A stretch of 32,000 bases of DNA, from contig NZ_CP066018.1 of assembly GCF_016127575.1 (NCBI RefSeq), forward strand, positions 2,520,001 to 2,552,000. The letters are read 5' to 3'. A program made the position numbers and the translations under genes. Under the pieces are notes generated by a model, which searched no databases, was not told the origin of the DNA, and saw only the letters and a list, made by a program, of their open reading frames with translations. Each line of letters opens with the position of its first letter. Within the stretch, counting starts at the first letter, position 1. Source of the DNA: Cupriavidus necator (lineage in GTDB: Bacteria > Pseudomonadota > Gammaproteobacteria > Burkholderiales > Burkholderiaceae). Of this stretch, positions 2,647-11,265 are shown piece by piece.

Positions 2647-3297
2647 TCAGTCGAGGCTGCGCAGCACCGCGCGCACCGGGCTGGCGTCGAGCCCGGCAAA
2701 GCGCAGCGGCAGCGCGATCAGTTCGTAGTCGCCGGCATCGACCTCATCCAGCACGATGCCTTCCAGGATGGCGAGCCCGTGCCTGCGCACGGCGTTGTGC
2801 GCGTCCATGGTCTTGGATTCCTGCGGGTCCAGCGACGGTGTGTCGATGCCCACCAGCTGCACGCCGTGCGCGGCCAGCAGCGCGATGGTCTCGGCCGCGA
2901 CTGCGCAGAAGTGCGGGTCCCACTGCGCCAGCGGCGCCTGCCGGTAGGTGCGCAGCAGCACGCGCGGCGGCAGGCCGGCCAGCGCGTGTTCGATATGGCG
3001 CGGCTCGACCACCGGCGAGGCGCCGATGCAATGGATCACGCGGCAGGTGCCGAGGTAGGGCGTGAGCGGCACGGCGCCGATCGGCGCGCCGTCGGCGGCG
3101 TAGTGCAGCGGTGCATCGGCGTGCGCGCCAGTGTGCGGCGACAGCGTGATGCGGCCGACATTCACCGGGCAGTGCTCGTCCATCTGCCAGGCCGGCTGCT
3201 GCTGGAACGGCGTGTCGCCGGGCCAGACCGGGGTGGCGGGGGAGAGCGGCGGGCTGATGTCCCACAGCCGGCGCGGGTCTTGATTGGGGGCGGTCAT
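2647..3297 (-). CDS. kynB: Kynurenine formamidase (arylformamidase, cyclase family)
   Basis: 216 aa, ATG verified. [20 protein letters not shown] and the metal-binding block [11 protein letters not shown] are typical of KynB/cyclase-family enzymes. It is the first gene of the kyn operon. Confidence 0.9.
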
Positions 3298-3455: not shown

Positions 3456-3938
3456 ATGAACCTCGATCCCACCGACCTGCGCATCCTGACCTGCCTGCAG
3501 GAGAACGGCCGCATCAGCAACCAGGACCTGGCCGACCGCGTGGCGCTGTCGCCTTCGGCATGCCTGCGGCGGGTGCGCCTGCTGGAAGAGTCAGGGGTGA
3601 TCGGCGGCTACCGCGCCTGGTTCGACGCCGAGCAGCTCGGGCTGGAGCTTGAGGCGATCGTGCAGGTCTCGATGCGCCATGATGTGGAAGGCTGGCACGA
3701 CACCTTTATCGCCGCGGTTCAGTCGTGGCCGGAAGTGCTGTCCGCGTACATCATCACCGGCGACAGCAACTACATCCTGCGGGTGCAGGCGCGCAACCTG
3801 AAGCACTACTCGGACTTCATCGTGAACCGGCTGTACCGCACCAAGGGCGTGATGGATATCCGCTCGAACATCGTGTTGCAGCGCATCAAGGTGGACAGTT
3901 CGCCGCTGGCGATCCTGAAGGCGGCGGAGGGCGCCTAG
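3456..3938 (+). CDS. kynR: Lrp/AsnC-family transcriptional regulator, divergent from kynBUA (KynR-like by context)
   Basis: 160 aa. The ATG has an AAGGA SD. N-terminal [50 protein letters not shown] is followed by an AsnC/RAM-type C-terminal domain. The symbol is assigned from position next to the kyn genes only. Confidence 0.8.
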
Positions 3939-4390
3939 CGTTGCGTATGCAGCGCAATCAGCTGCCGCAGGGCTTCTTTCAGCAGCGCGCCCTGGCGCGG
4001 GCCAAAGTCGTCCAGCACTGCGCGCTCGTGCTGGGCGGCGCGTGCCAGCAGCGGCTGGGCCAGCGCGAGGCCGCGCGGGGTGATCGAGATCAGCGCCTGG
4101 CGGCGGTCGGCCTGGCCGGCGCGGCGCGTCACCAGCCCGTCGGCGGCCATGCGGTCGACCAGCTTGGTCAGCGTCGGCTGCTTGGTCAGTGTGATTTCGG
4201 CGAGCGTGCCGATGGTGCAGTCGGGGCGGTCGGCCAGCGTGGCCAGCACGCGCCATTCCTGCACGGACAGGCCGCTGGCCTCCACTTCGCGGTGGAATTC
4301 GCCCGAGATCAGGTGGCTGGCGCGGGCCAGCAGGTAGGCCAGGTAGCCATCGACAAAGGGCAGGGGGGATTGCGCGGGCAGGTCCGCCAT
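3935..4390 (-). CDS. MarR-family transcriptional regulator
   Basis: 151 aa, ATG verified. The winged-helix core LSVQEWRVLATLADRPDCTIGTLAEITLTKQPTLTKLVDRMAADGLVTRRAGQADRRQALISITPRG is classical MarR. It lies 17 bp downstream of the flavin reductase on the same strand. Confidence 0.85.
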   Translation of the reverse strand: MADLPAQSPLPFVDGYLAYLLARASHLISGEFHREVEASGLSVQEWRVLATLADRPDCTIGTLAEITLTKQPTLTKLVDRMAADGLVTRRAGQADRRQALISITPRGLALAQPLLARAAQHERAVLDDFGPRQGALLKEALRQLIALHTQR

Positions 4391-4407
4391 GATGGGCCCG
4401 GTGCCGT

Positions 4408-4986
4408 TCAGAGGTCGAGGGGGGCGGTGGTGGTGAACTGGCCGCCCTGGAATACCAGCGGGCCGTCGCCGCCATCGAGCACGCCGCAGCGCTCGACTTC
4501 ACCCACGAAGATGATGTGGTCGCCCTCGTCGTAGCGGCTGCGGTTGTGGCATTCGAACCAGGCCAGCGCATTGGACAGGATCGGCAGGCCGGTGGCCGAG
4601 AGCCGGTAGTCGACGCCGGCGAAACGGTCGCCCTTGAGGGTGGCGAAGCGCTGGCACAGCTCCAGCTGCGAGGCCGACAGCACGTTGATGATGTAGTGGG
4701 TGCCGTCGCGGAACATCGGCAGGCTGTTGGCGCGCGTGGCCATGCTCCACAGCACCAGCGGCGGATCCAGCGACACCGAATTGAACGAACTGGCGGTGAT
4801 GCCGATGAACGGCGGCGCGCCGGCGGCGACCGACGCGGCGCTGGCGCGCGTAGTGATCACCGTCACCCCGGTTGCGAACTGCGACAGGGTGCGGCGGAAG
4901 TGCTGCGCATCGAAATCTGGTGCGGCGGCGCTGGTGATCTGTGGCTGGGCCTCAGGCATGCCCATGGGGGCTCCGCTGGAGTTCAT
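4408..4986 (-). CDS. Flavin reductase domain protein (NAD(P)H:flavin oxidoreductase, HpaC/Flavin_Reduct family)
   Basis: FRRTLSQFATGVTVITT, GITASSFNSVSLDPPLVLWS and GDHIIFVGEV match the FMN-binding split-barrel reductase family. The start is ambiguous. The ATG at 4986 has no SD, whereas the in-frame ATG at 4965 has GGAG 5 nt upstream. Confidence 0.85.
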   Translation of the reverse strand: MNSSGAPMGMPEAQPQITSAAAPDFDAQHFRRTLSQFATGVTVITTRASAASVAAGAPPFIGITASSFNSVSLDPPLVLWSMATRANSLPMFRDGTHYIINVLSASQLELCQRFATLKGDRFAGVDYRLSATGLPILSNALAWFECHNRSRYDEGDHIIFVGEVERCGVLDGGDGPLVFQGGQFTTTAPLDL

Positions 4987-4996
4987 GAAATTTCAT
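4985..4996. promoter_or_regulatory. 12-bp perfect palindrome ATGAAATTTCAT followed by an ATATATATT tract (candidate MarR operator / promoter element)
   Basis: Read directly from the sequence. It sits in a local AT-rich island at the divergent junction between the reductase-marR unit and the nicX-like operon. Confidence 0.3.
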
Positions 4997-5121
4997 ATAT
5001 ATTATTCGCGCCATGGGCATCGAGTACAAGCCCGGCGACCACCAATCCGCGATGCGGGCGTTGGCTGGCGCACAAAACCAGGCGAGCCCTGCCGCCATAC
5101 AAGAACAACCGGAGACAAGTC

Positions 5122-6192
5122 ATGCTCATCGAGCAGATCGAACACCGCTGGCTGGCGGCGTTCCGGCGCACGCTGGAACTCTGTGCCCTGCAGGGTGCGG
5201 AAGTCGTTGGAATTGTAACGGAGTCGCAATCCCGCCCTGTCAACGTGGCCTTGGCCGAACTGGCCGTGCAGTCGCTGGGCGCCACCCCGGTGCGGATCCA
5301 GGTGCCGACACCGGCACTTGGCGCGCCCGCGCCGGTGCGCTCCACCGGCGCCAGCGATGCCTTGCAGGGCCTCGCGCCGGTGGTGGCGGCCTTGTCGCGC
5401 TGTCACCTGGTGCTGGACTGCACGGTGGAAGGCCTGCTGCACGCGCCGGAACTGCCGCTGATCCTGCGCGGTGCCGACGGCATCGTGCCGCGCATGCTGA
5501 TGGTCAGCAACGAACATCCCGAGATCCTGGAACGCTGCCAGCCCGACCCGGCGCTGGAAGGCACCGTGCGCGCCGCCATGAAGCGCCTGCGCGGCGCGCG
5601 CGAGATGCGCGTGCATTCGCCGGCCGGCACCGAGCTGCGCATCGGCCTGGCCGACGCCCGCGTGGGCGGGGTCTGGGGCTTCTGCAACAAGCCCGGCCAG
5701 GTATCGCACTGGCCCGGCGGGCTGTGCCTGGCGTTTCCGGCCAGCCGCCAGGTCAACGGCACGCTGGTGCTGGCGCCGGGCGACGTCAACCTGACCTTCA
5801 AGACCTACCTGCGCGATACCGTGGTCTGCCATATCGAGGACGACTACATCGTCGGCGTCGAGGGGCAGGGCGTCGACGCCGACATGATGCGCGGCTACTA
5901 CCAGGCCTGGGCCGATCGCGAAGGCACGCGCGATGCGTATGCGGTCTCGCACGTGGGCTGGGGCCTGAACCGGCTGGCGCGCTGGGACGCGATGACTTTC
6001 TACGACAAGCGCGACTGCAACGGCACCGAGCTGCGCGCGTTTGCCGGCAACTTCCTGTTCTCGACCGGCGCCAACGAGGTCGCCGGGCGGCATACGCTGG
6101 GCCATTTCGACCTGCCGCTGCGCAACTGCACGGTGTCGCTGGATGGCCGCAACGAGGTGGAAGCGGGCACGCTGGTGGAGGTGGCGGCATGA
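5122..6192 (+). CDS. NicX-like Fe(II) ring-cleavage dioxygenase (2,5-dihydroxypyridine 5,6-dioxygenase family, aminopeptidase-T-like fold)
   Basis: The internal ATG at 5122 has a GGAGA SD 6 nt upstream. The upstream part of the 558-aa track ORF is antisense to the reductase gene. The C-terminal blocks VSHVGWGLN, RAFAGNFLFSTGAN and GHFDLPLRNC closely resemble my recollection of P. putida NicX, including an H...H-x-D metal triad. Confidence 0.8.
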   Translation: MLIEQIEHRWLAAFRRTLELCALQGAEVVGIVTESQSRPVNVALAELAVQSLGATPVRIQVPTPALGAPAPVRSTGASDALQGLAPVVAALSRCHLVLDCTVEGLLHAPELPLILRGADGIVPRMLMVSNEHPEILERCQPDPALEGTVRAAMKRLRGAREMRVHSPAGTELRIGLADARVGGVWGFCNKPGQVSHWPGGLCLAFPASRQVNGTLVLAPGDVNLTFKTYLRDTVVCHIEDDYIVGVEGQGVDADMMRGYYQAWADREGTRDAYAVSHVGWGLNRLARWDAMTFYDKRDCNGTELRAFAGNFLFSTGANEVAGRHTLGHFDLPLRNCTVSLDGRNEVEAGTLVEVAA

Positions 6193-7010
6193 GCGCGACC
6201 GCGACGATGCAACGCCACGCCAACGGCATCGCCACGCTGGCCTGGGGCGATGGCCCGGTGGCGGTGGTGATGCTGCACGGCATCGGCGGCGGCAAGGCCG
6301 CCTGGCCCGCGCAGGGCGAGGCGCTGGCGCAGGCCGGCTACCGCGCCGCGGCCTGGGACATGCCCGGCTACGGCGACAGCGCCCTGATCGATCCCTATGA
6401 CTTCGACGGGCTGGCGCAAGCGCTGGCGCCGCTGCTGCAGGCCGAGCGCGACGCCGGCCGGCGCGTGGTGCTGCTGGGCCACAGCATGGGCGGCATGGTG
6501 GCGCAGCAGGCCTGCGCGGCCGCGCCCGCGCTGATCGACGGCATGGTGCTGTCCGGCACCTCGCCCGCCTTTGGCAAGGGCGACGGGCCCTGGCAGCGCG
6601 ACTTCATCGCCGCGCGCACCGCGCCGCTGGACGCCGGCAGGACCATGGCCGAGATGGCCGCCGGGCTGGTGCGCACCATGGTCGCGCCCGATGCCGAGCC
6701 ACAAGCCGTGGCCTTTGCCACGGCGGTGATGGCGGCGGTGCCGGCGCCAACCTACCGCGCGGCGCTGGGCGCGCTGGTGCGCTTCAACCAGCGCGACGCG
6801 CTGCCGCGCATCGCGGTGCCGGTGCTGGCGCTGGCCGGGCAGCACGACACCAATGCCGCGCCCGAGGTGATGGAGCGCATGGCGCAGCGCATTCCCGGCG
6901 CCGAATACCGCTGCCTGCCGGATGTCGGCCACCTGGCCTGTATGGAGCGGCCCGCGCTGTTCAACGAAGCGGTGCTGGATTTCCTGCAGCGGCGCTTCCC
7001 CGTGCACTGA
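6189..7010 (+). CDS. Alpha/beta-fold hydrolase (NicD-like deformylase, thioesterase or esterase candidate)
   Basis: 273 aa. The ATG at 6189 overlaps the upstream stop as ATGA. It has an HGIGGG oxyanion-type motif, a GHSMGG nucleophile elbow and a C-terminal GHLACMERP histidine motif. Confidence 0.85.
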   Translation: MSATATMQRHANGIATLAWGDGPVAVVMLHGIGGGKAAWPAQGEALAQAGYRAAAWDMPGYGDSALIDPYDFDGLAQALAPLLQAERDAGRRVVLLGHSMGGMVAQQACAAAPALIDGMVLSGTSPAFGKGDGPWQRDFIAARTAPLDAGRTMAEMAAGLVRTMVAPDAEPQAVAFATAVMAAVPAPTYRAALGALVRFNQRDALPRIAVPVLALAGQHDTNAAPEVMERMAQRIPGAEYRCLPDVGHLACMERPALFNEAVLDFLQRRFPVH

Positions 7011-7098
7011 ACCACGCCGCTTCCCGGCAACGCAACACAAGAACCGCCGCAGCGCCGCCACCGCATCCGGCGCGAGCAGGAAAACAGGAGACCGCGAC

Positions 7099-8352
7099 AT
7101 GCCATCCGGACAGCTCGACTTCATTCCCGCCATCGGTACGGCGGACTTTACCCCGCAACAAGCGCGCCTGCTGGCGCTGGCCAACCGCCTCGGCCGCGAG
7201 CGCTTCGCCGCGCGCGCAGCCACCTGGGACCGCGAGGCCAGCTTCCCCTTCGCCAACTATGCCGACCTGCGCGAGGCCGGCCTGCTGGCCCTGTGCGTGC
7301 CGCAGGCGTTCGGCGGCGAGGGCGCGGACTTTGCCACCTACTGCATGGTCGGCGCCGAGATCGGCCGCTTCTGCGGGGCCACGGCGCTGACGTACAACAT
7401 GCATATCTGCTCGACCATGTGGACCGGCGTGCTGTCCGACGGCATCGACATGACGCCTGAGCAGCGCGCCGAGCACGAAGCCCGGCGCGAGCTGCATTTC
7501 TCGCGCGTGGTGCGCGATGGCGCGGTCTATGCGCAGCCGTTCTCCGAAGGCTCCGCCGCTGCCGCGGGCAAGGCGCCGTTCGGCACCACCGCGCGCAAGG
7601 TCGAGGGCGGCTGGGTGCTGAACGGGCGCAAGATCTTCGCCTCGCTGTCGGGCGCGGCCGACTACTACGGCATCCTGTGCACCGAGGACCGCGGCGACCA
7701 GCATCCCGACATGCGCGACACGCTCTATATCGCCGTGCCCGGCAAGGCGGAAGGGCTGACCGTGACCGGTGAGTGGGACCCGATGGGCATGCGCGGGACG
7801 GTATCGCGCACGCTGCTGCTCAAGGACGTGTTCGTGCCCGACCATGAGCAGCTGATGCCGCGCGGCGTCTACTACCGTGCCGCGCAGACCTGGCCGGCAA
7901 TGTTCTTCACGCTGTCGCCGACCTACCTGGGCGTAGCCCAGGCTGCCTACGATTTCACCGTGCAGTACCTGCGCGGCGAGGTGCCGGGCCAGCCGCCGGT
8001 CAAGCGCCGCATGTACCCGACCAAGCAGATCGCGGTGGCGCAGATGCGCATCCAGCTGGAAACCATGCGCTCGATCTTCTGGCGCGTGATCCATGAGGCC
8101 AGGCCCAATCCGACCAAGGACGAGCGCCTGCGCCTGTACGCCGCGCACTACACCGTGATGGAAGGCGCCAACGACATCGCCCGGCTGGCGATCCGCACCT
8201 GCGGCGGCCAGTCGATGCTCAAGGACCTGCCGCTTGAGCGGCTCTACCGCGACTCGCGCTGCGGTGCGCTGATGCTGCCCTGGACCGCCGAGCTGATCCT
8301 GGACCGCATGGGGCGCGAGACCCTGTACGAATCCGGCGAGCGCGACGAATGA
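7099..8352 (+). CDS. Acyl-CoA dehydrogenase-fold flavoprotein (possibly the oxygenase component of a two-component monooxygenase)
   Basis: 417 aa. The ATG at 7099 has an AGGAG SD. ACAD-type blocks include ASFPFANYADLREAGLLALCVPQAFGGEG, GEWDPMGMRGTVSRTLLLKDVFVP and CGGQSMLKDLPLERLYRDSR. Confidence 0.85.
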   Translation: MPSGQLDFIPAIGTADFTPQQARLLALANRLGRERFAARAATWDREASFPFANYADLREAGLLALCVPQAFGGEGADFATYCMVGAEIGRFCGATALTYNMHICSTMWTGVLSDGIDMTPEQRAEHEARRELHFSRVVRDGAVYAQPFSEGSAAAAGKAPFGTTARKVEGGWVLNGRKIFASLSGAADYYGILCTEDRGDQHPDMRDTLYIAVPGKAEGLTVTGEWDPMGMRGTVSRTLLLKDVFVPDHEQLMPRGVYYRAAQTWPAMFFTLSPTYLGVAQAAYDFTVQYLRGEVPGQPPVKRRMYPTKQIAVAQMRIQLETMRSIFWRVIHEARPNPTKDERLRLYAAHYTVMEGANDIARLAIRTCGGQSMLKDLPLERLYRDSRCGALMLPWTAELILDRMGRETLYESGERDE

Positions 8353-9884
8353 GCGCCGCCAGCCGCGCCATGCGCGCGGGCGCCGCCGGGCTGGGCGCGC
8401 TGCCGGCCATGCTGCATGGCCATGCCGCCGCGGCGCCGGGGCGGCCGGCGTTGCACTACCTGGGCCGCACCTTCACCTACGGCAAGCTGTGGCGGCGCGT
8501 CGAGCGTGCCAGCGCCCACCTGGCAGCGACGTGGGGCATCCGCGCGGGCGACCGCGTCGGCACGCTGTGCCTGAACCACGAGTTGCAGCTGGTGCTGCTG
8601 TTCGCCTGTGCGCGTGTCGGGGCGATGTTCGTGCCGCTGAACTACCGGCTGGCGCCGGCGGAGCTGCGTACCATTGCCGGCCACGCGCAACTGGCCGCGC
8701 TGTTCCATGACGAGCGCCATGCAGGGCTGGCGCAGGAGGCTGGCAGCGGCTGCCAGGTCGCGCATCTCGACCGGCTGATCGACCATCCCGCGCCGTTCGG
8801 CGTGGCCCATGCGCCGGTGCCGGACGATGCGCCGCTGCTGCTGGCCTACACCTCCGGCACCACCGGCAAGCCCAAGGGCGCGGTGCATACGCAGGCCGGG
8901 TTGCTGGCCAATGCGCGCGCCAGCTGGTGGGCGCACGGCATGACCGCGGACGACCACGTGCTGTCGGTGCTGCCGATGTTCCATGTCGGCGGGCTGTGCA
9001 TCCAGACGCTGCCGGCGCTGCTGGCCGGGGCGCAGGTCACGCTGCACGACCGCTTTGCGCCGGACGCCTGGCTCGGCGCGGTCGCGCAGGCGCGGCCGAG
9101 CCTGTCGCTGATGGTGCCGGCCACGCTGCGCGCGGTGCTTGAGCATCCCGGCTGGCCCGGGGCCGACCTGTCGGCGCTGCGCGGCGTGATGGCAGGTTCG
9201 TCGACCATCCCGCTGTCGTATATCGAGGCCTTCCATGCGCGCGGGGTGCCGCTGGGGCAGGTCTATGGCGCGACCGAGACCGGTCCGGTGTCGGTGGTGC
9301 TGAAGCTGCAGGATGCGATGGCCCGGCCTGGCTATGCCGGCTGGCCGCAGCCGGAGGCGCAAGTCCGGCTGGCCGGTCCGGACGGTGCCGAGGTGGCGCC
9401 GGGCGAGGTTGGCGAGCTGTGGGTGCGCGGCGCCAACGTGATGGCTGGCTACTGGAACCAGCCTGATAACGGCCTGCCCGACGGCTGGTTCCATTCCGGC
9501 GACCTCGCGCACCGCGATGCCGGCGGCTGCATCGAAGTCGTCGGCCGCAGCAAGGACATGATCATCTCGGGTGGCGAGAACATCTATCCCGCCGAGATCG
9601 AGAACGTGCTGGCCGGCCTGCCCGGCGTGCAGGAGTGCGCGGTGGTCGGCGTGGCCGATGCGCGCTGGGGCGAGGTGCCGGTGGCGGTGATCGTGCCCGC
9701 GCCGGGCGCGCCGCGCGACGCGCTGGGCGCGGAGCCGCTGCGCGAACTGCTGGCCACGCGCATTGCCCGCTTCAAGTTGCCGCGCGAGGTGGTGCTGCTG
9801 GAGGACCTGCCGCGCAGCGCGCTGGGCAAGGTGCTCAAGCCGCAACTGCGCGCGATGCTGGAGGCGCAGCGCCAGCCTGGCTGA
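8349..9884 (+). CDS. AMP-dependent synthetase/ligase (acyl- or aryl-CoA ligase)
   Basis: 511 aa. The ATG overlaps the upstream stop as ATGA. Motifs are AYTSGTTGKPKGAVHT, GDLAHRDAGGCIEVVGRSKDMIISGGENIYPAEIE and the terminal LPRSALGKVLK. Confidence 0.9.
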   Translation: MSAASRAMRAGAAGLGALPAMLHGHAAAAPGRPALHYLGRTFTYGKLWRRVERASAHLAATWGIRAGDRVGTLCLNHELQLVLLFACARVGAMFVPLNYRLAPAELRTIAGHAQLAALFHDERHAGLAQEAGSGCQVAHLDRLIDHPAPFGVAHAPVPDDAPLLLAYTSGTTGKPKGAVHTQAGLLANARASWWAHGMTADDHVLSVLPMFHVGGLCIQTLPALLAGAQVTLHDRFAPDAWLGAVAQARPSLSLMVPATLRAVLEHPGWPGADLSALRGVMAGSSTIPLSYIEAFHARGVPLGQVYGATETGPVSVVLKLQDAMARPGYAGWPQPEAQVRLAGPDGAEVAPGEVGELWVRGANVMAGYWNQPDNGLPDGWFHSGDLAHRDAGGCIEVVGRSKDMIISGGENIYPAEIENVLAGLPGVQECAVVGVADARWGEVPVAVIVPAPGAPRDALGAEPLRELLATRIARFKLPREVVLLEDLPRSALGKVLKPQLRAMLEAQRQPG

Positions 9885-9962: not shown

Positions 9963-10505
9963 ATGGAACATGGACTTGAAACGGCCACGCTGGGGGGCGG
10001 GTGCTTCTGGTGCCTGGAAGCGGTCTACCAGCAGGTCGATGGCGTGGTGGCGGTGGAGTCCGGTTATACCGGCGGGCACGTGGATCACCCGACTTACCAG
10101 CAGGTTTGCGAGGGGGATACCGGGCACGTCGAGGTGGTCCGTGTCACCTTCGATCCGTCGGTGATCAACTATCGCCAGATCCTGGAAATCTTCTTCGCCA
10201 TCCATGACCCGACCACGCCGGACCGGCAGGGCAACGACGTGGGGCCGCAGTACCGGTCGGCGATCTTTACGCATTCGGAGGCGCAACGGGCCACGGCGGA
10301 ATACGTGATGCGGGAGTTGGCTGCCGCCAAGGTCTTTGATGCGCCGATCGTGACGCAGGTCGAGCCGGAGCAACCGTACTGGCGCGCCGAGGCAAGTCAC
10401 CAGAACTACTACCAGGATCATCCGAGCCAGGGGTACTGTGCCTTTGTGATCTCGCCGAAACTGGCCAAGTTTCGAAAGCAGTTTGGGGGCAAGTTGAGGA
10501 AGTAG
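9963..10505 (+). CDS. msrA: Peptide-methionine (S)-S-oxide reductase
   Basis: 180 aa, with an AAGGGGG SD. It has the active-site GGGCFWC motif and HVEVVRVTFDP and GNDVGPQYRSAIF blocks. Confidence 0.95.
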   Translation: MEHGLETATLGGGCFWCLEAVYQQVDGVVAVESGYTGGHVDHPTYQQVCEGDTGHVEVVRVTFDPSVINYRQILEIFFAIHDPTTPDRQGNDVGPQYRSAIFTHSEAQRATAEYVMRELAAAKVFDAPIVTQVEPEQPYWRAEASHQNYYQDHPSQGYCAFVISPKLAKFRKQFGGKLRK

Positions 10506-10517
10506 GGACCGGGCGCT

Positions 10518-10540
10518 GGGTCGGCGCCAAAAGCCGACCC
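10518..10540 (+). terminator. Hairpin GGGTCGGC-gccaaaa-GCCGACCC after msrA (probable terminator)
   Basis: Perfect 8-bp GC-rich stem with a 7-nt loop, 13 nt after the msrA stop. It is followed by TAGTTTCC, a weak T tract. Confidence 0.4.
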
Positions 10541-11265
10541 TAGTTTCCCTGCGCAAACATCGCGTAACCGACCACGGCCGCGGTTTGCGGATCGTCCGCG
10601 AGGTAGTCGAGGTAATCCGAATAGTCCAGGCAGGCTTCGTTGCCGGTATTGATGAACTGGTGGAAGCCCACGTCCATCTGCCTTCCTGTGGCGTAGACGA
10701 TGGCGCAGACGTTGCCGCTCTGGGTCAGCAGGCTCACGGCACCCGGGCCGTCCTGCGGCGGGAACGCGCGGAACGTGGTGGCAAATGCGGTGATGGCGCG
10801 CGTGGTCAGGTTGGCCAGCCCCATGCAGTTGGGTCCGGCGATTGCCATGCCGCTCTCGCGGGCGAAGGCCGCAAGTGCGGCCTGGCGCCCGGCACCAGCT
10901 TCACCGGCCTCGGCAAAGCCCGAGGCGTAGACGATGGCGGCACGGACGCCGCGGGCATGGCAGCGCTGCAACTGCGGCAGCACCTCGTCCGCGCCGAGCT
11001 CCAGCACCGCCACGTCAGGCACCTGCGGCACGGATTCGATATCGGGATAGCACGCCAGGCCGGCGATCTCGGCATAGCGCGGATTGACCGGATACACCTG
11101 ACCCTGGTATCCAAGGCGCTGCAGGTGGTCCAGCGCCACGCCGCCGATGCGGCTGGTATCGCGCGAGGCGCCGACAATGGCTATCGAGGCAGGATCAAGC
11201 AGCTGCGGCAGGGCGGCGCGGCCCGGTGTGCGCGCCGTAGTGGAAAGGGGCATCGTCGTCTCCAT
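10540..11265 (-). pseudogene. Truncated N-terminal fragment of an NDP-forming acyl-CoA synthetase (CoA-binding domain plus part of the CoA-ligase domain)
   Basis: IAIVGASRDTSRIGG, VYPVNPRY and IAGPNCMGLAN are the N-terminal domains of proteins that are normally about 700 aa. The ORF stops after about 240 aa. Its last residues (AMFAQGN) diverge from the family, and its stop codon lies inside the msrA terminator stem. The likely translational start is the second ATG at 11253 (GGAG SD). Confidence 0.6.

Follow-up and report, generated by a model that had tools for sequence, protein, structure and literature searches.

A conserved six-gene module beside kynBUA in Cupriavidus necator, containing the indigo-forming oxygenase gene bec, as a possible route from indole to anthraniloyl-CoA

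What is the function of a compact group of six genes that lies beside the kynBUA genes of Cupriavidus necator and combines a putative ring-cleaving dioxygenase with a flavin-dependent oxygenase and a coenzyme A (CoA) ligase? The group occupies positions 3935-9884 of a 32,000-nucleotide stretch of contig NZ_CP066018.1 (positions 2,520,001 to 2,552,000), the whole of which is referred to here as the window. Its two arms are divergent. On the minus strand, a gene for an NAD(P)H:flavin reductase of the HpaC/C1/HsaB type (4408-4986; 192 amino acids) is followed in the same orientation by marR (3935-4390; 151 amino acids), which encodes an HpaR-like MarR-family regulator. On the plus strand, beyond an intergenic region of 135 bp, stand the genes for a NicX-like protein (5122-6192; 356 amino acids), an α/β-hydrolase (6189-7010; 273 amino acids), a protein with the acyl-CoA dehydrogenase (ACAD) fold (7099-8352; 417 amino acids), and an AMP-forming acid-CoA ligase (8349-9884; 511 amino acids). 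We propose, with a probability of roughly 0.45, that this MarR-controlled module converts indole, or a closely related tryptophan-derived heterocycle of the indole type, to anthranilate and then to anthraniloyl-CoA.

The gene structure was verified by direct reading of the sequence. The G+C content of the window is about 69%, and the reading frames chosen by codon-position G+C agree with those of the original prediction, which had been made from the nucleotide sequence alone. All of the junctions that it described were confirmed: marR and the reductase gene are 17 bp apart, the NicX-like and hydrolase genes overlap as ATGA (6189-6192), the ACAD-fold and ligase genes do the same (8349-8352), and 88 bp (7011-7098) separate the hydrolase gene from the ACAD-fold gene, whose start is preceded by AGGAG at a distance of 8 nt. 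The overlaps suggest that the hydrolase is translationally coupled to the dioxygenase gene and the ligase to the ACAD-fold gene. Protein families were then assigned by a scan of 20 open reading frames (ORFs) at positions 3-20576 of the window, the ORFs at 20.1-32 kb being left out. Searches of Pfam and NCBIfam gave matches above the curated cut-offs for MarR, Flavin_Reduct, Abhydrolase_1, the three ACAD domains, AMP-binding, and kynA, kynU and kynB, and thus confirmed the MarR, flavin reductase, α/β-hydrolase, ACAD-fold and AMP-ligase families named in the original prediction.

These six genes form one functional unit that is shared by hundreds of bacterial species. An alignment of the NicX-like clade was used as the query in a search of one genome per species, which returned at least 586 relatives; the loci analysed were the best 80 of these, supplemented by loci obtained through exact protein look-up. 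Gene order downstream of the NicX-like gene was counted in the 67 non-duplicate loci that had at least 4 kb of downstream sequence. The hydrolase gene was found in 60 of the 67, the ACAD-fold gene in 63, and the ligase gene in 60, and in 56/67 loci all three were present in the same order. Immediately upstream, a flavin reductase or MarR gene was present in 66/80 loci. The nearest relatives come from Cupriavidus (strain UYPR2.512, 98%; C. taiwanensis, 94%), and the hosts extend from Burkholderiales, including Cupriavidus, Pandoraea, Limnohabitans, Polaromonas and Rhodoferax, to Alphaproteobacteria and Acidimicrobiales. The flanks of the module vary by lineage (e.g., L005), and clustering of the flanking ORFs revealed no additional gene common to all lineages. 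A constant gene order across lineages with differing flanks indicates a genuine module rather than a chance juxtaposition. Both the unity of the six genes and their conservation across Burkholderiales, the latter posed earlier as a question for follow-up, are therefore borne out, with a wider host range than had been considered.

A first clue to the substrate comes from the ACAD-fold protein. In the homologue search it was 88% identical to an entry named 'BEC [Cupriavidus necator]' (AAK38074 / Q9AHJ3). The mismatches are confined to a few short blocks with identical sequence on both sides, a pattern resembling compensated frameshift errors in an old (2001) entry; hence, 7099-8352 of the window is the same gene as bec. 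As cited in PMC5481743 and PMC6221969, BEC of Ralstonia eutropha HF39 was described by Drewlo et al. in 2001 as a 'gene mediating indigo formation in E. coli'. PMC5481743 counts it among the ACAD-fold, flavin-reductase-dependent, indigo-forming oxygenases, and PMC6221969 places it among the 'acyl-CoA dehydrogenase-like' indigo-forming enzymes. Because BEC forms indigo from indole in E. coli, its documented substrate is free indole and not a CoA thioester. The precomputed Pfam matches of AAK38074 lack the C-terminal ACAD domains.

Sequence features of the protein itself agree with an oxygenase function. The Pfam N-terminal, middle and C-terminal domains of the three-domain ACAD fold all match, and similarity to true short-chain ACADs reaches E ~5e-30. 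Inspection of the sequence and alignments showed LPWT (in 'ALMLPWTAE') where ACADs have YEGT (in 'EIYEGTSEI'), so that the catalytic glutamate of the MCAD Glu376 type is absent; the IVD Glu254-type position likewise holds no glutamate. The closest sequence relative in the PDB is 5Z8T, which was deposited as a 'Flavin-containing monooxygenase'; a literature search on the PDB codes 5GJ7 and 5Z8T found no paper. A Foldseek search with the predicted model (pLDDT 74) gave TM values of 0.70-0.75 to SCAD, IBD and MCAD, which confirmed the ACAD fold and did not separate oxygenases from dehydrogenases. Judged by its sequence, the protein is a group D two-component flavin monooxygenase, akin to HsaA, C2-HpaH, DszC, IacA and XiaF, and not a dehydrogenase. 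The original prediction had assigned it as a reductase-dependent oxygenase, and this assignment is upheld by the missing catalytic glutamate, the identity with BEC, the match to 5Z8T, and the adjoining reductase gene.

A second clue lies in the substrate pocket of the NicX-like protein. The protein found no match in the local Pfam copy; however, it aligns with the solved NicX structure (7cn3) over residues 13-352 (E=5.5e-51), is 36% identical to an annotated plasmid NicX, and has relatives that carry PF26233:NicX. In NicX, the iron is held by His265, Ser302, His318 and Asp320, with Arg293 positioning Asp320; Leu104 and His105 guide the substrate, and Glu177 and His189 form hydrogen bonds with N1-H and the C2 oxygen of 2,5-dihydroxypyridine (PMC7910607). 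When NicX, the window protein and 44 family representatives were aligned, residues L104, H105, H189, H265, R293, S302, H318 and D320 were all retained in the window protein and in the sampled clade members with at least 65% identity. The position of Glu177, in contrast, is valine in 10/10 of these sampled members, whereas other family members sampled mostly have glutamate or glutamine there. Given that all iron-binding and catalytic residues are retained and Glu177 is lost, the protein, a predicted NicX-family mononuclear Fe(II) dioxygenase with an altered pocket, very probably remains active in ring cleavage and acts on a substrate other than 2,5-dihydroxypyridine. A valine at this position would suit a fused benzene ring located where the pyridone carbonyl would otherwise sit.

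The two remaining enzymes are assigned more broadly. The hydrolase, a serine hydrolase with a GHSMGG nucleophile elbow, matches Pfam Abhydrolase_1 at 3.3e-30; its nearest NCBIfam models are PcaD-like and below cut-off, and its match to Pfam Thioesterase is partial and borderline (27.3 bits against a cut-off of 26.4). The ligase matches Pfam AMP-binding at 1.3e-80, and its top solved relative is the feruloyl-CoA synthetase 8wev (7e-101). The benzoate-CoA ligase model is absent from its top 25 NCBIfam matches.

Gene neighbourhoods in other genomes indicate where the product may go. Genes for kynA and kynU, with or without kynB, lie within 10 kb of the module in Cupriavidus, Pandoraea and four unclassified Burkholderiales metagenome-assembled genomes (MAGs). 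In Limnohabitans and its relatives, a complete abmA-B-R-C-D-G-E operon ends beside the divergent MarR-reductase pair; this operon matches the 2-aminobenzoyl-CoA cluster of Azoarcus evansii in the form listed for C. metallidurans, and its AbmA passes the NCBIfam cut-off of the ACMR/salicylyl-CoA hydroxylase model. Seven other loci have a stand-alone ACMR-type gene, 46-49% identical to AbmA, at 0.6-5.6 kb upstream of the module. In one of them (L007), where called genes were available, the module ligase is the only ligase gene near the ACMR-type gene, and a tblastn screen found no AbmG-type ligase in the other loci with a stand-alone ACMR-type gene (e.g., L041, L043, L045, L048, L066). Altogether, abmA or a complete abm operon adjoins the module in at least 22 loci, and kyn or abm genes occur within 10 kb in 31 of the 60 loci whose upstream flank extends over 8 kb or more. 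The module is thus linked to anthranilate metabolism, as the original prediction had supposed from kynBUA; the link has become stronger, as kyn genes, abm operons or stand-alone ACMR genes adjoin the module in several lineages. Two further observations concern these loci. A gene for a 390-aa protein without a Pfam or NCBIfam match lies beside the stand-alone ACMR-type gene of L007. In approximately 10 Limnohabitans-type loci (e.g., L089, 14772-16777), genes for a TctC-type solute-binding protein and a second α/β-hydrolase directly follow the ligase gene and are possible uptake or extra-hydrolase partners.

Variant loci reveal which parts of the module can be dispensed with. A widespread variant from Comamonadaceae is represented by three loci (L090-L092, from Ramlibacter, Hydrogenophaga and a related metagenome genome), which have the MarR-reductase pair diverging from the NicX-like, hydrolase and BEC genes without a ligase. 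Their BEC is 82% identical to that of the window, which is closer than the Limnohabitans copies that do have a ligase, and their dioxygenase is 58-61% identical with asparagine at position 177. The ligase is thus an add-on, and the oxygenase is independent of it. An EamA transporter gene lies upstream in these loci, and in 2/3 of them an M14 gene overlaps the end of the ACAD-fold gene. The latter was considered as an amidase gene replacing the ligase, and this idea was dropped: the protein is of the MpaA-like (murein-peptide-amidase) kind, and the L091 copy starts with a hydrophobic stretch that we interpret as a signal peptide, so that the gene probably adjoins the module without being related to it. 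A reduced module was also observed in a Burkholderiales MAG with a 3.0-Mb chromosome (L004/L044), among housekeeping genes, with rplM/rpsI and a COQ7 gene nearby; a reductase-like gene (detected by tblastn only) is followed there by NicX-like, ACAD-fold and ligase genes, with neither hydrolase nor MarR.

The proposed route would unite these elements in four steps. In the first, BEC, supplied with reduced flavin by the reductase, would convert indole to indoxyl by hydroxylation at C3; that E. coli forms indigo through BEC is known from the literature, whereas indoxyl as the BEC intermediate and the module reductase as its partner are our own suggestions. The NicX-family Fe(II) dioxygenase would then cleave the HO-C3=C2(H)-N1 bond of indoxyl to yield N-formylanthranilate; NicX cleaves an identical enol-enamine substructure, HO-C5=C6(H)-N1, in 2,5-dihydroxypyridine. 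The coupled α/β-hydrolase would deformylate N-formylanthranilate to anthranilate and formate, as NicD does after NicX, and the ligase would finally supply anthraniloyl-CoA to the ACMR/abm pathway. Anthranilate as the product would account for kynBUA, the abm operon and the stand-alone ACMR-type gene beside the module, and also for the ligase-less variant, in which the ligase would be dispensable. Such a route would give every module gene a role and account for all contexts, and we assign it close to, and slightly below, an even chance. A direct step from indoxyl to N-formylanthranilate was reportedly described in Aspergillus niger by Kamath and Vaidyanathan in 1990. In an old proposal for a bacterial indole pathway (Sakamoto 1953, as cited in PMC6221969), indoxyl and N-formylanthranilate are both intermediates, with isatin between them.

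Several points weigh against the indole route. We know of no NicX-family enzyme that acts on substrates other than 2,5-dihydroxypyridine. Larger HF39 clones are said to have been indigo-positive as well in the work of Drewlo et al., which would be unexpected with an active indoxyl dioxygenase co-expressed. The hydrolase family offers no specific substrate clue, and the hydrolase was rejected as a NicD orthologue, being 30% identical over 150 aa (E=0.004) to NicD of the nic cluster L093. The ligase is only 29% identical to AbmG of L089 and is feruloyl-CoA-synthetase-like rather than of the AbmG/benzoate-CoA ligase type; moreover, two anthranilate ligases would stand side by side in Limnohabitans. 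The kyn and abm associations amount to only about 4-5 independent lineages, so their statistics are weaker than the raw count implies; the enrichment is still far beyond chance for genes that occur approximately once per genome. Aromatic oxygenases often form indigo as a side activity (PMC5481743, PMC6221969), and indole therefore need not be the native substrate of BEC. Finally, indole degradation in Cupriavidus sp. SHE has been genetically assigned to the iif/ind cluster, as reported for Qu et al. (2017) in PMC6221969.

Four other readings were weighed against the same evidence. The enzymes could follow the logic of the Hsa system on a free aromatic acid, most plausibly anthranilate: BEC and the reductase would form 5-hydroxyanthranilate, hydroxylated para to the amino group, the NicX-like enzyme would open the benzene ring at a bond adjacent to the hydroxyl group, the hydrolase would act as a C-C hydrolase releasing formate, and the ligase would activate the unsaturated ring-fission acid for β-oxidation-type steps. 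The four enzyme types do parallel HsaA, HsaB, HsaD and FadD3, all of which are among the NCBIfam matches below cut-off, and the ligase's nearest solved relative, feruloyl-CoA synthetase, activates an enoic acid. The kyn neighbours would supply anthranilate, replacement of Glu177 by valine would also accommodate a ring carbon with a carboxylate where N1 would otherwise be, and the ligase-less variant is compatible with this scheme. We nevertheless regard it as unlikely, given that the sole reported activity of BEC is on indole, with none on anthranilate, and that neither a maleylacetate reductase gene nor any other downstream gene is linked to the module. It also leaves unexplained why ACMR-type genes, whose products require an aryl-CoA, lie beside the module with no other ligase near, and the literature search yielded no paper on bacterial 5-hydroxyanthranilate catabolism. 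Less likely still is the scheme of the original prediction itself, in which BEC hydroxylates C5 of an aryl-CoA (e.g., anthraniloyl-CoA) formed by the ligase, the hydrolase acts as a thioesterase, and the free para-aminophenol or para-diol acid that results is cleaved by the NicX-like enzyme. Precedent exists in the salicylyl-CoA/gentisyl-CoA route, CoA-ester hydroxylases of the ACMR/SdgC type adjoin the module in other genomes, and the similarity to short-chain ACADs noted above means that a CoA-binding cleft might persist. This mapping is not supported, and we consider it improbable: the bec product oxygenates free indole in E. coli, and the NicX-like, hydrolase, reductase and MarR genes of L090-L092 accompany an 82%-identical BEC without any ligase. 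Seven loci would contain a redundant pair of BEC and an ACMR-type hydroxylase, and the abm operon adjoining the module in Limnohabitans already encodes AbmG. The thioesterase role fares no better, its sole basis being the partial and borderline Pfam Thioesterase match.

The neighbourhood of the abm genes could also mean that the module serves the 2-aminobenzoyl-CoA pathway in salvage or detoxification and would process 5-hydroxyanthraniloyl-CoA, an aromatic by-product of ACMR at limiting NADH, by thioester hydrolysis, ring cleavage and re-activation of the product. The by-product is documented, hydroxyanthraniloyl-CoA having been detected in anthranilate-grown Arthrobacter (PMC3534580), and the number of loci in which abmA or complete abm operons adjoin the module, at least 22, would be as expected. 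However, BEC and the reductase, the most consistently conserved partners, would have no role; about half of the loci have no abm gene within 10 kb, and the Cupriavidus module adjoins kyn genes instead. On these grounds, we consider this reading very unlikely. Least credible of all is the view that two unrelated gene pairs, dioxygenase with hydrolase and oxygenase with ligase, merely happen to be adjacent. The 88-bp gap between the pairs in the window and the ATGA coupling within each would fit it, but the four genes are contiguous and ordered in 56/67 loci from three phyla or classes with differing flanks, and the hydrolase and ACAD-fold genes abut or overlap in many loci.

The proposed indole module was compared with several characterized systems. 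In the nic pathway of Pseudomonas putida, NicX and NicD convert 2,5-dihydroxypyridine via N-formylmaleamate to maleamate. The module shares with it the dioxygenase family, Fe(II) ligands and catalytic residues, the pairing of dioxygenase and α/β-hydrolase genes, and a MarR-type regulator; the proposed chemistry is also alike, with cleavage of HO-C=C(H)-N to a carboxylate and an N-formyl group followed by deformylation. Against the canonical nic cluster L093, however, the module differs in its 36% identity to NicX, the valine in place of Glu177, a hydrolase not orthologous to NicD, and its partners, which are a two-component ACAD-fold oxygenase and a CoA ligase. No nicC, nicE, nicF or nicAB was found among the 20 scanned ORFs, and a nicotinate or hydroxypyridine pathway was rejected on this basis and on the loss of Glu177. 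The earlier statement that the genes do not form a nicotinate, picolinate or 5-hydroxypicolinate cluster thus remains valid.

The iif/ind system of Acinetobacter and Cupriavidus sp. SHE has the same substrate, indole, and the same product, anthranilate, as proposed for the module, and its first step likewise involves a two-component flavin-dependent oxygenase with a flavin reductase (IifC/IifD). Judged by description, the oxygenase-reductase pair of the module belongs to a different family. Ring opening would also differ, proceeding in the module through indoxyl and N-formylanthranilate by a NicX-type Fe(II) dioxygenase and a deformylase, and in iif/ind through a dihydrodiol and 3-hydroxyindolin-2-one. 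No gene resembling the short-chain dehydrogenase IifB or the cofactor-independent oxygenase IifA was found in or beside the module among the 20 ORFs. In Cupriavidus, anthranilate from iif/ind then enters the 2-aminobenzoyl-CoA pathway (PMC6221969). The abm genes of Azoarcus evansii, in which AbmA is ACMR and AbmG the ligase, have the CoA thioester of anthranilate and a MarR regulator in common with the module and physically adjoin it in Limnohabitans and other Burkholderiales. None of abmA (ACMR), abmB-D (β-oxidation-like), abmE (RidA-like) or abmG (a ligase of the benzoate-CoA ligase family) is present in the scanned part of the window, and the module probably feeds the abm pathway rather than belonging to it. 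The sdg genes of Streptomyces sp. WA46 (salicylyl-CoA/gentisyl-CoA) likewise cluster an aromatic-acid ligase, a hydroxylase and a ring-cleaving dioxygenase. Their hydroxylase, however, acts on the thioester and is a FAD/OYE fusion of the ACMR-like kind, whereas that of the module is an ACAD-fold two-component enzyme known from the literature to act on a free heterocycle, and their dioxygenase is a cupin gentisate dioxygenase rather than a NicX-type enzyme; neither an SdgC/ACMR-type FAD-monooxygenase/OYE fusion nor a cupin gentisate 1,2-dioxygenase was detected among the 20 ORFs. The steroid-ring degradation set HsaAB-HsaC-HsaD-FadD3 has the same complement of ACAD-fold oxygenase with reductase, ring-cleaving dioxygenase, α/β-hydrolase and acid-CoA ligase; its dioxygenase family and substrate differ, and all similarities are below family cut-offs.

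The MarR protein matches Pfam MarR_2 at 1.9e-16, with HpaR as the top NCBIfam model (7.5e-17, below cut-off), and marR is retained upstream of the module in 56/80 loci. The reductase matches Pfam Flavin_Reduct at 1.3e-38; its NCBIfam matches, including the p-hydroxyphenylacetate hydroxylase C1 reductase (3.3e-45) and HsaB (4.8e-36), are all below cut-off. Its gene adjoins the module in 58/80 loci. The Polaromonas/Rhodoferax group has in its stead a more distant reductase (37-43% identity), encoded at another position and co-directionally, which suggests that a reductase is functionally required; presumably, it supplies reduced flavin to the ACAD-fold oxygenase. As an observation on gene order, the reductase and MarR genes of L007 are separated by a carboxymuconolactone-decarboxylase/AhpD-like gene, and in the metagenome contigs L041 and L043 MarR is displaced by a similar distance.

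The divergent region contains an element that may take part in this regulation. The AT-rich sequence CATGAAATTTCATATATATTATT (4984-5006, no strand assigned), which stands out in a genome of 69% G+C, overlaps the reductase start codon and holds the perfect 12-bp palindrome ATGAAATTTCAT, detected by eye and by alignment. It is kept in 7/7 aligned Cupriavidus sequences, identical in 5 and 2 bases shorter (AT after TTTC) in 2, while the remainder of the region between the reductase and NicX-like genes diverges among them. We regard it as a candidate MarR operator or divergent promoter core. Scans for consensus promoters, terminators and inverted repeats found nothing useful, and the promoter scan gave no match.

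How much of this is new depends on the level considered. All of the enzyme families are known and bec has already been cloned and named; the module is a catabolic cluster of known parts with a probable new specificity. A literature search that covered few subscription journals yielded no account of the whole module, of its kyn/abm link, or of a non-pyridine NicX-family enzyme. In the BEC literature consulted, bec of Ralstonia eutropha HF39 appears only as an isolated indigo-forming gene, and this literature describes neither its conserved partners nor the kyn/abm association. The original prediction had called the combination undescribed; this stands for the module as a unit within the literature searched, and fails for the ACAD-fold gene.

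Indole is a major interspecies signal and a pollutant, and to our knowledge only one gene-level aerobic route for its degradation, iif/ind, is established. We tentatively suggest, at slightly longer odds than the indole route as such, that the NicX-like protein is an indoxyl 2,3-dioxygenase, the first for which a gene is defined, opening a pyrrole rather than a pyridine ring, and that together with BEC, the reductase, the deformylase and an anthranilate-CoA ligase of a new type it constitutes a second route from indole to anthraniloyl-CoA, distinct from iif/ind and widespread in soil and freshwater Betaproteobacteria. If true, genome-based predictions of indole turnover would change, particularly for the abundant freshwater Limnohabitans and Polaromonas. 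The bec gene, known for 25 years solely as an indigo-former, would gain a physiological role, and the NicX dioxygenase family would be extended beyond pyridine substrates. Feeder genes would be identified for the incompletely understood 2-aminobenzoyl-CoA pathway, and the indoxyl/N-formylanthranilate pathway proposed biochemically decades ago would have genes assigned to it. Even with another substrate, the module is a large conserved unit to which no function had been assigned.

On one side of the module in the window lie kynA (457-1341), kynU (1355-2611) and kynB (2647-3297), all on the minus strand, which lead from tryptophan to anthranilate and match NCBIfam equivalogs above cut-off (trp_2_3_diox, 457 bits; kynureninase, 365 bits; trp_arylform, 336 bits). 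Between kynB and marR, on the plus strand, stands a gene for an Lrp/AsnC-family regulator (3456-3938; Pfam AsnC_trans_reg and HTH_24), presumably the kyn regulator, which is found in the Cupriavidus loci and absent from Pandoraea. It is convergent with marR, and the 3' ends of the two genes overlap by 4 bp (3935-3938), leaving no space for a terminator between the kyn regulator and the module regulator. On the other side, the ORFs to 20.6 kb are common chromosomal genes, including msrA, a DUF72 gene, a cyclopropane-fatty-acid-synthase-like gene, pdxH, an MFS transporter gene and AsmA. Between msrA and the DUF72 gene, a 241-aa ORF on the minus strand (10540-11265) has a CoA_binding_2 domain and only the first 61/138 positions of Succ_CoA_lig; this appears to be what remains of a truncated ADP-forming acyl-CoA synthetase gene, and no gene occupies the matching position in C. 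taiwanensis (L001). The msrA gene itself (9963-10505 in the window) recurs a few kb 3' of the ligase gene in otherwise differing neighbourhoods (the window, L001, L002, L004, L041 and L045), which could reflect either ancestral synteny or a functional link.

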